From Nitrospirota bacterium (GTDB taxonomy: Bacteria > Nitrospirota > UBA9217): a stretch of DNA of 64,000 bases. Numbering within the stretch: position 1 is the first letter of the stretch; each line of letters begins with the position of its first letter. The notes under the pieces were generated by a model that saw only the letters and a list, made by a program, of their open reading frames with translations, was not told the DNA's origin and ran no database searches. Made by a program: the position numbers and the translations under genes. Below are positions 1-4,929 of the stretch, piece after piece. The DNA is taken from the NCBI GenBank assembly GCA_963741205.1, contig CAVUHW010000045.1:27646-91645 (forward strand), in the 5' to 3' direction.

Positions 1-205
1 TTAAAGCTTCGATCTCTGTATTGACATCCCGTTCGCATTATCAAGATGCGCCGTAAAACCTCGTCCTTCAGGGCGGGGATATAAGGCGCTGGTTGCTTCG
101 CAACCAGAGAATCATGCCCTCAAATAAGCAGTGGATAAATGTTCACCTGCTTGATATATTAATTAATATGGATGTATCCAGCAACAGAACCTGAATTCGC
201 AAACG

Positions 206-1422
206 ATGACTGCCGTCGGAAAAGTATCAGTGACCGACGATAGCACCGCTCTTGTGCTTGGGCTGCTAGGCTTTTCCGCGACAAAACTTTGGAACACCGC
301 CGTGTGGTATACCAAGGAAGTCTGGAAAACCACCGGCAAAATACCCTCCTATTCGAATCTTGACGTCGCTATTAAGCAGGAACACCCTCGCTGGTACCGC
401 CGTCTGCACTCACAAAGCGCCCAGGCTGTATTGGAAGAGCTTTGGCAGTCATACAAATCATGGTTCGCTCTCCGTAAGAAAGGCGACATGAAAGCCAAAC
501 CGCCGGGATTCAGACGGAAAACCGAGCTATCGACAGTAACCTTCAAGCAAAACGCCGTAAAATGGAACCCGCGGACTAAAACAGCTGCGGTTCAGCATCC
601 CGAAAGACATCTACGGCAAGCAGTTCCTGTATCTCAAAATCCGGCTGCCTGAAGGCATCCGGCTCACCGAAGACAACATCCAGATTGCCCGGCTGATCCA
701 TCATAACGGCAGTTGGTATGTCCACTTCGTATACAATATCATGCTCCCCGAACTGAAAGGAGCCGGGGAAACCATGGCCATTGACCTTGGAATGAAGCAT
801 CTTGCAGCCACGGCCTGCACAGACAAGACCACGGCGCTTTGGTCAGGCGGCGAAATGGCGTCTCTTGAGACGGCATTTTGACAAGCAAAAGTCAAAGACC
901 GCCAGTAGTAGGTCCAGAAAAACGTGTGCTCTTAACCAGAAGCGCTCCCGTCAGCGCACCCACCTGCTCCACAGTTTTACCAAATCTCTTGTCCGCGATG
1001 CAGACGCTCGCGGCGTCTCCACGATCATCGTGGGGGACCTTAAGGACATCAGAGACGGCAAAGACTGGGGAGACAGCGGGAACCAGAAATTGCACAAATG
1101 GCCGTTCGATAAAATCATCAAGATGCTCACGTATAAGGCTAGACTCGAAGGCATCCGCGTTGTGAAGATAGAGGAAGGCTACACGAGCCAGACATGCTGC
1201 ATGTGCGGCACAATTTGTAAATCCAATCGTGTCCATCGAGGCCTCTATGTTTGCAACCAGTGCGGTTCCGTAATCAACGCCGATGTGAACGGCGCAATCA
1301 ACATTCTTAAAAGGTATCTCCCGGAGCAAATAAGTGACTCCTGGAGTAGTGGCTGCTTGGCACAGCCTGCGGTCAACCGGTTTGCCTGGAGAAAAACCAG
1401 GCCAGTAGTCATCAGCCCATAA
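206..1422 (+). CDS. tnpB: TnpB RNA-guided endonuclease (apparent frameshifts near 585 and 868)
   Basis: LWN...LHSQSAQ...KPPGFRRK N-terminus, MAIDLG RuvC-I in the middle frame, YTSQTCCMC...CNQC zinc finger, NADVNGAINI RuvC-III. Confidence 0.92.
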
Positions 1423-1534
1423 ACCGGGGACGTGGCATACATCCCTGCCGCATCCGCGAACAGAATCAGCAGTGGCTCTTAGCGAAGTAAGGGCCTGATT
1501 CGGGAATCCTCGGCCTTCAGGCCGGGGAGGATGT
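1330..1534 (+). ncRNA. Probable TnpB omega/reRNA scaffold region (5' boundary approximate)
   Basis: Position only: 3' end of tnpB through the right-end hairpin, as established for IS200/IS605 TnpB. Confidence 0.55.
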
Positions 1535-3170
1535 GTGCGCCTAGCATGGGCGCGATCTTAGAGGTGGAAGTCCTCTAGCGAGTTGACCACAACGAGCTAA
1601 GCGAAGCGCAACTGCGTGAGGGTGACCAAACGTGGGGAGGAAGCGTGGAGCGAAACCGTGAGCCAATGAAGAAAAATCAGATATGAGGCGCTGGCCTTTT
1701 AGGGCAAACAGGCACATCACTGCAAAGCTCTTGTGGTCAATGAAAAAGCTGCGTAGATCTGGTGGTTGTACGGTGAAGGATCGCGTTCTTACCTGGGGAG
1801 ATCTCGCCTTATGCCTGAAGGGGCAACGACCTCAAGTCCGGAGCGAGAAGTCAGCAGCGGCCGTAATAACTGGGCAACCGAGCGAAGGGCCAAACGAGAA
1901 GGAGAGTCCGAAATTATGACGACTTGGACGCGCATCGCATCAGAAGCCCGGAAAATCGGGGCGAGTCGGAGTTAGCGCAGGTGAAGCCGGCGCTGATGCG
2001 ACTGCGTGATGAAGCTCGCCCGGCGTGTCAAGCAACAAAAGGACTCAGGGCGAGATAATCTGGTACAGCAGGTTCTCTCGCGCGAGAACATGTTGGCGGC
2101 GTGGAAACGCGTCAAAGCCAACAAGGGAAGTGCGGGCGTTGATGGGCTCTCAATCGAGCAAACCGAAGAATATCTCAAGGAACACTGGCCGCGAAATTCG
2201 AGTGGAACTTCTTAGCGGAGTTTATTGGCCTCAAGCCGGTGCGCCGCGTGGAAATTCCAAAACCGACAGGCGGTAAGCGGGAATTGGGGATACCGACGGT
2301 CGTTGATCGGGTGATACAGCAGGCCTTGCTACAAATCCTGCAACCCATGATTGACCCAACCTTTTCCGAATTCAGCTACGGCTTCAGACCGGGGCGAAGT
2401 GCACATGACGCAGTGCGACAAGCACAGCGATATGTGGCGGAAGGCTATCGATTTGTTGTCGATGTTGATTTGGAAAAATTCTTTGATAGGGTCAACCACG
2501 ACATTCTCATGGACCGGCTCGCAAAAACGTATTGCTGATAAAACCGTACTGCGGTTAATTAGGCGCTACTTGCAAGCTGGAATCATGGCAAATGGGGTGG
2601 TGCTAGATCGTTCGGAGGGCACCCCTCAGGGTGGTCCGCTGTCGCCGCTCGTAGCGAATGTGTTGCTCGACGAAGTAGACGAAGACCTGCAGCAACGGGG
2701 TCATCGTTTCGCTCGATATGCTGATGATTGCAACGTGTATGTGCGCAGTCAGAAAGCTGGCGAGCGCGTACTTGACTCCTTGAAGAACCTATATGCAAAT
2801 CTGCACCTTCGGGTAAACGAGAAGAAAACTGAGGTGGGACCGGTCTTTGGCCGTAAGTTCCTTGGCTATTGCCTACGGCGATGGTCAAAGGGAACGGTGA
2901 AAATCGCCGTTGCCCCCAAGGCAATCGACACGTTCAAGCAGCGCATACGGTTCATCACACGCCGTGTCGGTGGGTGCAGCATGATTCAAGTCGCCGAGCA
3001 GATGCGGGCATATCTGCCGGGGTGGAAAGCCTACTTCCGCCTCGCGCAAACGCCCGAGAAATTCAAAGACTTGGATTCATGGATGCGACACAGACTTAGA
3101 GCGATACAGCTTAAGCACTGGAGGCGGGGACCCACGATCTATCGGGGACTACGTCGTCTTGGGGCAGTCC
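1535..3170 (+). mobile_element. Group II intron, class IIC (attC-targeting-like), 3'-truncated
   Basis: Starts GTGCGCCTAGCATGGGCGC directly after a DNA hairpin. About 380 nt of ribozyme sequence with typical CTTACCTGGGGAGATCT and GAGAAGTCAGCAG motifs, then the RT ORF. No domain V/VI seen downstream. Confidence 0.88.
1916..3170 (+). CDS. ltrA: Group II intron reverse transcriptase/maturase (frameshifted, C-terminus lost)
   Basis: AWKRVKANKGSAGVDG, RVEIPK..GGKRELGIPTVVDR, GTPQGGPLSP, YADD at 2717-2728, maturase GWKAYF. Breaks off after YRGLRRLGA. Confidence 0.92.
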
Positions 3171-3171
3171 C

Positions 3172-3767
3172 GTGGTTTTTGCCTCGGGCCTCAGAAACGC
3201 GGTGTTCATGACCATTCACCCGAGGACGAAGCGGGTTTGGGTCACTGAGATGGGCCGCGATCTGCTGGGCGACGACTTGCCGCCCGATGAAATCAATATC
3301 ATCGATGAAGGCGGGAATTATGGCTGGCCGTTCTGCTATGGAAAGAACGTTCATGACGGGGATTTCGACCCGAAAGTGACGCATTTCTGCCGTGAGCCGG
3401 CAACGGTCCCTTCCTCCATCGACATCCCGGCACACTCGGCGCCACTGGGTCTGGCGTTCTTTCCCGATGAGGGCTGGCCGAAGGAGTTTCGCAATGATCT
3501 CCTGGTCGCATATCATGGCTCATGGAACAGGAGCGTCCCCACCGGATACAAGATCGTACGATACCGGCTGGACAGCGAAGGCCGCTTTCAAGGGGTCGAT
3601 GATTTCATAAGCGGCTGGCTTGCCTCTGACGGGCGTTCGCTCGGCAGGCCCGTTGACATCATGATCCGGCCGGAAGGGACGATCTTCGTTTCCGACGACA
3701 AGGCGCGGCGTACTTTATCTACGGGATCACAGAAACAGGAAGAACAGGGAGGGCCTATCAAGACTGA
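3172..3767 (+). pseudogene. C-terminal fragment of PQQ-dependent glucose/sorbosone dehydrogenase
   Basis: ASGLRNAV, PDEINII..GGNYGWP, AHSAPLGLAF, AYHGSWNRS, GRPVD...SDDKA. The 5' half is absent. Confidence 0.8.
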
Positions 3768-4929
3768 AAAGAACGTCATCATCATCGGCGCCGGCGCCTC
3801 AGGCCTCCTGTGCGCCGTGGAATGCGGCAAGCGCGGCCGCTCGGTGCTCGTCATAGACCACCGCGACCAGAGCGGATCCAAGATACGCATCTCCGGCGGA
3901 GGCAGAAGCAATTTCACGAACCTGAACGCGTCCGCCGACCACTACCTTTCGCAAAATCCTCATTTCTGCAAGTCAGCCCTGGCCCGCTTCACGCCGCGGG
4001 ACATCCTTGCCCTCGTTGAGAAACATCATATCGCCTGGTACGAAAAAGAGGCCGGTCAAATATTCTGCGTCAAGAGTTCCCGGGATATCATCTCGATGCT
4101 CGAGAAGGAGTGCGAAAAGGCATCGGTGGAGACGCGGCTTAACTGCCGCATAACGGACATCGGGAAGGACAAGACCTTTACGGTCCACACGAGTGAAGGC
4201 ATCTTCACATCTGAATCGCTGGTCATCGCCACGGGAGGGCTCTCGTATCCCAAGATCGGGGCGAGCGGTTTCGGCCACGAGGTGGCCCGCCAGTTCGGGC
4301 TCAGGACGACGCAGGTACGGCCGGCCCTGGTTCCCTTCGTGTTTTCCGGCCGAGACCAGCAGGTCTTTCAAGGGCTGGCGGGCGTTTCCCTTGACGCGGC
4401 CCTGTCCTGCGGGGCGAAGAAATTCCGCGGCAGCGTCCTGTTCACTCACCGGGGCCTTTCGGGGCCCGCGGCGCTGCAGGCGTCGTTGTACTGGATTTCG
4501 GGAGCGCCGCTCATAATCGACCTCCTTCCGGCCACGGACATCCTCGAGGTGTTTACCGCGAGACGTCGGAGCAAAATGGAGATGCGTAACCTTCTCGCTG
4601 AATTCCTGCCGAAGCGTTTTGCACAGACCTGGTGCGACTTCATGCTGGTCTCAAAGCCGGTCAACGAGACTTCGGACAAAGAGTTGAAGGCGATCGCAGA
4701 CGGGCTTCACCGATGGGAGGTATTTCCCAAGGGGACGGAAGGGTACAATACCGCGGAGGTGACGGCAGGCGGCGTTGATACCGACGAACTTTCGTCTAAG
4801 ACCATGGAGGCGAAAAAGGCGCCCGGGCTTTACTTCATCGGCGAGGTCGTGGATGTGACGGGAGAGCTCGGAGGCTATAACCTCCATTGGGCCTGGGCTT
4901 CGGGATTCGCGGCAGGACAATATGCGTAG
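3757..4929 (+). CDS. HI0933/YhiN/BaiN-family flavoprotein
   Basis: IIIGAGASG, KIRISGGGRSNFTN, ATGGLSYP, LFTHRGLSGP, VTAGGV, GELGGYNLHWAWASG. Start uncertain (ATC after GGAGG). Confidence 0.92.
   Translation: MKTEKNVIIIGAGASGLLCAVECGKRGRSVLVIDHRDQSGSKIRISGGGRSNFTNLNASADHYLSQNPHFCKSALARFTPRDILALVEKHHIAWYEKEAGQIFCVKSSRDIISMLEKECEKASVETRLNCRITDIGKDKTFTVHTSEGIFTSESLVIATGGLSYPKIGASGFGHEVARQFGLRTTQVRPALVPFVFSGRDQQVFQGLAGVSLDAALSCGAKKFRGSVLFTHRGLSGPAALQASLYWISGAPLIIDLLPATDILEVFTARRRSKMEMRNLLAEFLPKRFAQTWCDFMLVSKPVNETSDKELKAIADGLHRWEVFPKGTEGYNTAEVTAGGVDTDELSSKTMEAKKAPGLYFIGEVVDVTGELGGYNLHWAWASGFAAGQYA

Follow-up and report, generated by a model that had tools for sequence, protein, structure and literature searches.

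The DNA analyzed here (the window) is a stretch of 64,000 nucleotides from contig CAVUHW010000045.1 of a Nitrospirota bacterium (assembly GCA_963741205.1). Its first 1.5 kb are a tnpB-only element of the IS200/IS605 family of insertion sequences (IS), IS1341-type and with no tnpA inside, and the right end of this element runs directly into a 3'-truncated group II intron of class IIC. The coordinates of all features are listed in Table 1.

The right end (1504-1534) consists of GAAT, a 9-bp hairpin, and GGATGT, and the intron starts with GTGCG at position 1535. At the junction the letters are cgGGAATCCTCGGCCTTCAGGCCGGGGAGGATGT^GTGCGCC, with 1534 as the final exon base and 1535 as the first G of the intron. 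The same arrangement had been described in a first-pass annotation of the stretch and was borne out. Folded as single-stranded DNA (ssDNA), the right end formed a 9-bp stem (1507-1515 with 1520-1528) around the loop TTCA at -8.5 kcal/mol (z = -2.45; 3 of 200 shuffled sequences were equally stable). The six bases GGATGT (1529-1534) lie unpaired between stem and intron, and the last of them, the T at 1534, opens a split TCAA. In IS608, GAAT is the right-end guide (GR) (PMC3597680; citations refer throughout to the accessible parts of the papers). Among eight aligned right ends, the hairpin stem exhibited compensatory changes, and GGAATC...GGGGAGGAYGT was kept.

The intron was assigned by a match to Rfam group-II-D1D4-3 (RF02001) at 1616-1788 (105 bits, gathering score 32, E 1.9e-21). 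In an unpaired stretch of this alignment lies AGGAA (1638-1642), a motif named for IIC introns (PMC1702495). Up to position 3121, the DNA is 76-79% identical to full-length introns of 1832 nt, which end in ...CCCCTATGCCGAT. The reverse transcriptase (RT) of one of them, L006 (456 aa), carries RVT_1 and GIIM only and no endonuclease domain (Pfam, E <= 0.001). As had been noted in the first pass, the window copy is truncated: its similarity to full-length introns stops after 3165, and about 200 nt with the RT C-terminus, domains V and VI, and the 3' splice site are missing. In the full-length introns L006 and L154, no match to a domain V/VI family was obtained at Rfam gathering thresholds. The source genome holds no second copy of the intron, and its other RTs are at most 41% identical. 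Several of these other RT genes, on its contigs C10 (79178-84050), C12 (14497-15631), and C14 (40756-41217), are 34-41% identical to the L006 RT, with four matches within 5 kb on C10.

The tnpB of the window is 89% identical to an intact 437-aa copy in the same genome (L002), and relative to that copy its frame is broken by 1-nt insertions at 585, 865, and 1408; the Pfam matches to OrfB_IS605 and TNB fall within the open reading frame (ORF) 802-1422. A Y1 (HUH) TnpA is absent from the element, and three above-cut-off Y1_Tnp matches were found elsewhere in the genome. The 3' region of tnpB matched Rfam sot0042 at 1312-1528 below its gathering score of 88 (44.6 bits, E 2.4e-9) and HgcC, likewise below its gathering score, at 20.8 bits. 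The sotRNAs of RF02656 have been equated with omegaRNAs (PMC12558985), the guide RNAs of TnpB. Subterminal hairpins are present on the same strand at both IS ends (59-78 and 1507-1528).

Table 1. Features at the IS-intron locus, in window coordinates
Feature	Position	Strand	Basis
TTATCAA, candidate target site or transposon-associated motif (TAM)	38..44	+	directly 5' of left end
Left-end subterminal hairpin CCTCGTCC TTCA GGGCGGGG	59..78	+	sequence; conserved in L002
tnpB pseudogene	206..1422	+	Pfam OrfB_IS605 and Cas12f1-like TNB; alignment to L002
omegaRNA-like scaffold, overlapping tnpB 3' end to right end	1312..1534	+	sub-threshold Rfam sot0042
GAAT and right-end hairpin	GAAT 1504-1507; hairpin to 1528	+	DNA fold; GAAT likened to IS608 GR
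Intron-binding site 1 (IBS1) ATGT, last four bases of the 5' exon	1531..1534	+	sequence; uninterrupted copies; EBS1 covariation
Class IIC group II intron, 3'-truncated	1535..3165	+	GTGCG at 1535; Rfam RF02001
Exon-binding site 1 (EBS1) ACAT	1714..1717	+	covariation with last four exon bases
RT/maturase pseudogene	1916..3165	+	Pfam RVT_1 and GIIM on ORF fragments
Glucose/sorbosone dehydrogenase-like C-terminal fragment	3166..3770	+	Pfam GSDH positions 175-299 of 332

Insertion point relative to TCAA

The first-pass annotation had proposed that the intron split T^CAA in the cleavage motif of the IS right end, at the boundary between omegaRNA scaffold and guide. Uninterrupted copies of the IS, which it had suggested to consult, are present in the source genome: L002 is intact, L003 is a 3' fragment, and L004 is a hairpin standing alone. 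These copies end ...GGATGTCAA, more exactly GGATGTCAAG in L002 and L003 and GGACGTCAAT in L004. At the point where the window reads ...GGAGGATGT^GTGCG, the sequence continues ...GGAGGATGTCAAG in L002 and L003 and ...GGAGGACGTCAAT in L004, so that ATGT is followed by CAA in all three. A soil-metagenome contig without the intron (X1 record 1) runs ...ATGT^CAAGAAAG, i.e. ATGT^CAAG.

Intron copies with a visible 3' junction complete the picture. Scanning with the RT fragment yielded 80 related loci; in the closest, L006, an intron of full length (1832 nt) lies between ...GGGGAGGATGT and CAAGCACT. The expected start of the 3' exon, CAA, was found in five of the seven right-end-type copies in which this junction is visible (L006, L154, L171, L174, and L262), and the expectation failed in the other two, L117 and L163. 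The 3' exon is also CAA in the plasmid and Escherichia coli copies L264, L265, L266, and L268.

In E. coli, the IS609 beside yedK provides an orthologous empty/filled pair with the insertion exactly between ATGT and CAA. The empty allele of strain 203740 reads ...GGAGGATGTCAACAAACAGG (at length ...GGCGTGGAGGATGTCAACAAACAGG), and the filled allele of strain MFDS1022581 reads ...GGAGGATGT^intron^CAATAAACAGG. When the 1-kb junction region of L265 served as the query, the IS part was retrieved from 4896 of 5426 complete E. coli genomes and the IS-intron junction from three.

At nine sites the letters are alike only up to TCAA, and the base that comes next there is G, G, T, G, G, A, T, G, or C. This variation after CAA puts the end of the IS at TCAA and the intron 3 nt inside the element. 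Together with the EBS1 match described below, the uninterrupted copies and the CAA exons support the view that the intron splits T^CAA at an IS605-type right end, adjoining the predicted scaffold/guide boundary of the omegaRNA.

At the opposite end of the element, the similarity between the window and L002 starts at TTATCAAG (in both of the copies compared). Both copies are preceded by TTATCAA (38-45 in the window), so that the left flank and the right end both finish in TCAA. TTATCAA/TCAA may thus be the target or TAM of this element.

Further copies of the intron at IS ends, which the first-pass annotation had suggested to look for, were found: at least 13 other loci have the same junction. 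It reads hairpin-GGAGGAYGT^GTGCGCCC in L006, L139, L140, L154, L163, L171, L174, L242, L254/L262, L263, L265, L266, and L268. The further copies came from the same-genus genome G005, from G001 (the genome of L007), from plasmids, and from E. coli chromosomes. Named hosts come from different phyla and include E. coli, Polaromonas sp. JS666, betaproteobacterial MAGs (metagenome-assembled genomes), a Methylacidiphilaceae MAG, and Verrucomicrobia bacterium LP2A; RefSeq records annotate the arrangement just as neighboring tnpB and ltrA genes. In a metagenome scan for the junction pattern, only 7 of the 80 loci returned carried the intron and 73 were unrelated but shared a 17-mer, so the hit count itself is not evidence. 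Among 30 related genomes, the first 366 nt of the intron had a good match in G005 only (79%) and weak partial matches in five others.

As the junction recurs at other loci, it is not peculiar to this assembly. A chimeric join of IS and intron, which the first pass had named as a refutation, or of intron and dehydrogenase gene would fit a source genome of 50 contigs that is 84% complete, the single-base insertions of the window within an otherwise identical repeat, and the finding that none of the compared contigs bridges 3165/3166, those that reach 3165 continuing as RT. However, the 1534/1535 junction is reproduced in finished isolate genomes, namely on plasmid 2 of Polaromonas JS666 and on three E. 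coli chromosomes, and the rest of the window contains 35 open frames of at least 300 aa, which makes general indel noise unlikely. An artefact could therefore concern the 3' truncation and the frameshifts only, not the IS-intron junction, and we regard it as extremely improbable as an explanation of the locus.

EBS1-IBS1 pairing and the intron lineage

Class IIC introns recognize a stem-loop together with an IBS1 of 3-4 bp (PMC1702495). Mapping of EBS1 against ATGT, another check named in the first pass, led to ACAT in the window, the exact complement of the last four exon bases (1531-1534). Across copies, the EBS1 loop paired with these four bases at 4/4 positions in 44 of 63 copies and at three or more positions in 61 of 63. 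The mean was 3.65 pairs compared to 2.30 in shuffled sets, none of the 2000 shuffles reached the observed mean, and eight other registers used as controls gave no covariation signal. ACAT is shared by the window, L006, L242, L264, and L268; L154, L171, L174, and L263 carry ACGT, facing ATGT or ACGT. In the left-end copy L007, EBS1 is CTAT and faces CTAG. Copies at terminator sites have A-rich EBS1 loops that fit their T-rich exon ends.

Most relatives of the intron sit 6-8 bases past a GC-rich hairpin followed by a T-run, and insertion behind such a structure is a hallmark of class IIC introns (PMC1702495). Among the 84 rows of the RT tree, this type of 5' exon (assigned by a crude rule) was seen in 48, and in 19 the 5' exon was not visible. 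The tree itself is a quick maximum-likelihood tree of a 212-residue RT segment, from which a length filter dropped L012, L013, and L174. It placed the window in a clade of nine rows with an SH-aLRT (Shimodaira-Hasegawa-like approximate likelihood ratio test) support of 99 and a stem length of 0.25. Six of the nine are at right-end sites (the window, L171, L139, L006, L154, and L242) and L007 is at a left-end site; L008 and L009 have no visible 5' exon, L008 sharing with L007 the last two exon bases (AG) and the 3' exon CGCGG. Terminator-site introns are lacking in the clade, and its sister lineages sit behind intrinsic terminators. As judged from a tnpB identity of 24% between L002 and L139 and from hairpin stems that differ by compensatory changes, the invaded elements are not one IS.

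Left ends are used as well. The intron was found at the left-end hairpin in L007/L241 and in L243, and the LP2A genome contains uninterrupted left ends reading ...GGGGAAGGATAG^CGCGG alongside two intron copies exactly at that point. Intron copies at both ends indicate that the lineage inserts at either terminal hairpin, the two hairpins being on one strand. One left end without an intron, L231 (G001, ~1480-1510), reads ...GGATAG GTGCGC CGTCTTTGG, compared to ...GGATAG CGCGGT CGTCCTTGG in uninterrupted copies. The six odd bases equal the first six bases of the intron and may be a footprint of intron loss.

Based on these data, very probably a lineage of IIC introns was retargeted from terminators to the terminal hairpins of IS200/IS605 elements, and the intron of the window retrohomed between ...GGATGT and CAA. 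The alternative of a one-off accident, in which a terminator-homing IIC intron mistook the right-end hairpin and no specialized lineage exists, draws on the "other inverted repeats" that IIC introns tolerate (PMC1702495), on a geometry of stem, six nucleotides, and intron equal to that of a terminator site, and on L117, which occupies a right-end-type site from outside the clade. It is at odds with the ACAT of the window, as opposed to the A-rich EBS1 of terminator-site copies, with the lack of a terminator site in all nine rows of the clade, and with the repetition of the junction at 13 or more other loci in unrelated hosts. We consider such an accident very improbable.

Several observations weigh against a retargeted lineage, or restrict what may be concluded from it. 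The 3' exon starts with TCGG in two of the seven visible right-end cases, L117 and L163, for which we have no explanation, and the RT of L117 falls outside the RT clade. The ORF-less copy L243, located at a left end, has the right-end-type EBS1 ACAT with at most 2/4 pairs to its ATAG; hence, EBS1-IBS1 pairing is not always kept. A column co-varying with the first base of the 3' exon, as expected for EBS3, was not found within the first 330 nt of 54 copies, the top columns being near-invariant A. In G001 and G005, a full-length intron stands behind a right-end remnant of only ~75-105 nt with no whole IS, and other histories are possible. Contigs of other samples are identical to the window apart from its 1-nt insertions, and for these insertions and the 3165/3166 join an assembly error in the repeat is possible.

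The remnant loci are L242 (G001; 1425-1500), in which the remnant begins directly past the stop codon of an efflux-pump gene, and L262 (G005), with about 105 nt before a full-length intron. Introns behind mere remnants suggest that homing requires the terminal module rather than an active IS. The remnants could be solo right ends, traces of deleted ISs, or 5' exons that traveled with the intron.

Some copies of the intron are ORF-less derivatives, such as L163 (173-868) and L243 (G001; 1501-2138). Of the 5' part they retain about 270-550 nt, and of the 3' part about 75-95 nt. On the E. coli IncY phage-plasmid pCombat11I9-3 (L264; 3013-3495), a mini-intron of this kind with ~483 nt is located at ATGT^CAA inside a perfect inverted repeat of 15 bp (TTGACATCCTCCACG...CGTGGAGGATGTCAA); genes for a holin and a serine acetyltransferase lie on either side. 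Among the 25 plasmid matches listed, 16 show the pattern query 99-530, and all 16 are from E. coli or Klebsiella.

Tandem introns were observed in L263, L242/L244 (G001), L029, and L041, where a second intron follows directly after the last base of the first (...CCGAT). The second intron of L263 (Polaromonas sp. JS666 plasmid 2; 4843 onward) is of a different lineage; its EBS1, ATCG, is complementary to the terminal CGAT of the first intron, and the corresponding pairing in L029 is 1/4. From these letters, the second intron of L263 looks like one that homes behind the domain VI hairpin of another intron.

Predicted consequences and related systems

The observation itself is confirmed, the structural reading is supported, and the functional reading is a proposal drawn from published mechanisms. 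In the mechanism that we propose, the relatives of the lineage recognize an intrinsic terminator's stem-loop plus 3-4 exon bases. EBS1 would have changed to ACAU, or to CUAU for left ends, and with this change the IS605 terminal module GAAT-hairpin-GGAGGAYGT^CAA would have become a homing site. The ribonucleoprotein of the intron would recognize the right- or left-end stem-loop and the four bases and then reverse-splice. TnpA acts on the single-stranded top strand of the IS, and reverse splicing would be most likely when this strand is single-stranded. At the locus of the window, an endonuclease-less IIC intron would thus have entered the right end of a tnpB-only IS by retrohoming, 6 nt past the foot of the hairpin.

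The cleavage tetranucleotide of IS608 is TCAA. It pairs with the guide (CR/GR), and the length of the linker is critical (PMC3597680). An insertion at T^CAA would part the tetranucleotide from hairpin and guide, and an invaded IS would be unable to excise; with TGTG now in the position of the tetranucleotide, right-end cleavage and excision should fail. The guide portion of the TnpB omegaRNA is transcribed from the flank, and TnpB cleaves the donor joint that excision leaves behind (PMC10055086). Once the intron is inserted, the last three bases of the scaffold plus a flank-derived guide would be carried by spliced RNA alone. Blocked TnpA excision and a guide that depends on splicing had both been put forward in the first pass, and both can only be inferred from the arrangement. 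The intron would gain a site that is multicopy, horizontally mobile, and transcribed through, and a frozen IS would no longer need its tnpB. Broken or shortened tnpB genes in the window, L006, and the E. coli strains Z1323CEC0003 and MFDS1022581 (273 aa vs. 402 aa) fit the latter expectation; L139, with a tnpA of 137 aa and a tnpB of 406 aa, is an intact counterexample.

Taken furthest, the intron would be a dedicated parasite of IS605 right ends that freezes the IS, gates the arming of TnpB by its maturase, and uses the right-end hairpin, which is obligatorily read through, as a terminator look-alike that, in contrast to a true terminator, ensures its own transcription. This is a tentative and, in our judgment, rather unlikely scenario. 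If true, it would be the group II counterpart of the conflict between intron and guide RNA in IStrons.

A functional composite, in which the IS tolerates or exploits the intron and either splicing gates omegaRNA maturation or IS and intron move as a unit, appears improbable. L139 combines intact tnpA and tnpB with an RT ORF that stays open over 420 aa up to the contig end in the same arrangement, and tnpA and ltrA are intact in E. coli MFDS1022581. Intron and tnpB are co-oriented wherever tnpB is visible (the window, L006, L139, L263, L266, and L268), as would be needed for splicing from a tnpB/omegaRNA transcript. L171 and L174 share a near-identical right end and intron with different flanks after CAA, but differing flanks are equally expected from independent homing into each IS copy. 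The four loci with a broken or shortened tnpB fit relaxed selection after immobilization better than a partnership, and the insertion has moved the cleavage tetranucleotide 1.8 kb away, whereas linker length is critical in IS608 (PMC3597680).

Retargeting of a IIC lineage to IS200/IS605 hairpins can be compared with four known arrangements. The closest relatives by sequence are the terminator-homing IIC introns (48 of 84 rows), exemplified by B.h.I1 of Bacillus halodurans (PMC1702495), which share the RT/maturase without endonuclease and the 4-bp EBS1-IBS1 pairing. In contrast to these, the stem-loop is here the terminal hairpin of an IS200/IS605 element, IBS1 is ATGT/ACGT (CTAG/ATAG at left ends) instead of a T-run, and the site lies inside a mobile element, in a tnpB 3' region that matches omegaRNA families.

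The known targets of IIC introns are terminators and attC sites; in the IIC-attC introns, one sublineage of the class has switched from terminators to a recombination hairpin in ssDNA. The present introns resemble them in being retargeted to an ssDNA hairpin of another mobile system. They differ in that the target is an IS605-family end and no attC site and that the nearest sisters among the 84 rows of the RT tree are terminator-homing. Integron-associated introns have been described as class IIC (PMC7923331).

Like IStrons (PMC4227781, PMC10690162), the locus unites an intron ribozyme with a tnpB/omegaRNA transposon, and a shared locus of this kind implies that splicing and guide-RNA formation can interfere. 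IStrons, however, use a group I intron, the IS is within the spliced unit, and the whole element splices from host genes. Here, a group II retro-element with its own RT is nested in the IS end and interrupts the IS cleavage site. The locus is thus no IStron, since it has a group II ribozyme that sits within the right end of the IS.

RmInt1 in ISRm2011-2 (PMC4238363, PMC3035460) is likewise a group II intron with a homing site in a mobile element, and splicing has been proposed to control the spread of its host element. RmInt1 belongs to IIB3 with long EBS1/EBS2 pairing and targets the transposase ORF of a DDE-type IS, whereas the target here is a terminal DNA hairpin and guide-RNA gene. Group II introns hide in mobile elements generally (PMC7306698).

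No description of IIC introns in IS200/IS605 ends or omegaRNA genes was found in the searchable literature; supplementary tables are outside such a search, and an earlier report is possible. A lineage aimed at these hairpins would, if true, represent a third natural target class of IIC introns and join two systems that act on ssDNA hairpins. As the insertion point comprises the bases that define right-end cleavage by TnpA and the scaffold/guide boundary of the omegaRNA, it constitutes a natural experiment on guide-RNA production and on the silencing of transposons by other parasites. The empty and filled IS609 alleles at one E. coli locus make the consequences testable with standard genetics. 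In addition, the EBS1 plus hairpin rule may help in the design of IIC-based targetrons. The interest lies in the lineage and the E. coli system; the window copy itself is an ordinary dead relic.

Decay of the window copy and neighboring sequence

Among the sequencing runs listed as containing the sequence, none was recorded as RNA and none contained more than 0.12 of the sampled words. The decay of the window copy was followed on contigs of other soil samples from four of these runs; the contigs do not bridge 3165/3166 or cover 2067-2221. Compared to otherwise identical or near-identical contigs, the intron of the window contains one additional base at each of 1921, 2004, 2032, 2238, and 2523. 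With these five bases removed, the RT frame is open for only 98 aa from 1916, and at least one more RT break lies within the stretch uncovered by the contigs. With both tnpB and RT frameshifted, the copy reads as dead.

Two contigs that match up to 3165 go on with RT sequence, whereas the window goes on with the last third of a dehydrogenase-like gene. A 3' truncation is not expected from incomplete reverse transcription. The simplest reading is a later deletion that removed the last ~200 nt of the intron, CAA, and the flank, running into the dehydrogenase gene.

The dehydrogenase fragment was matched in G010 only, on a contig other than that of the G010 flavoprotein match, and the neighboring flavoprotein gene explains the remaining matches (in total, 19 of 31 genomes had a match), so that the ancestral locus could not be reconstructed from them. 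In the window, fragment and flavoprotein gene (HI0933-like) share a single open frame, a 585-aa ORF (3166-4929). Around 3700-3720, another frame resembles the usual C-terminus of the dehydrogenase, which suggests a further frameshift in the fragment.

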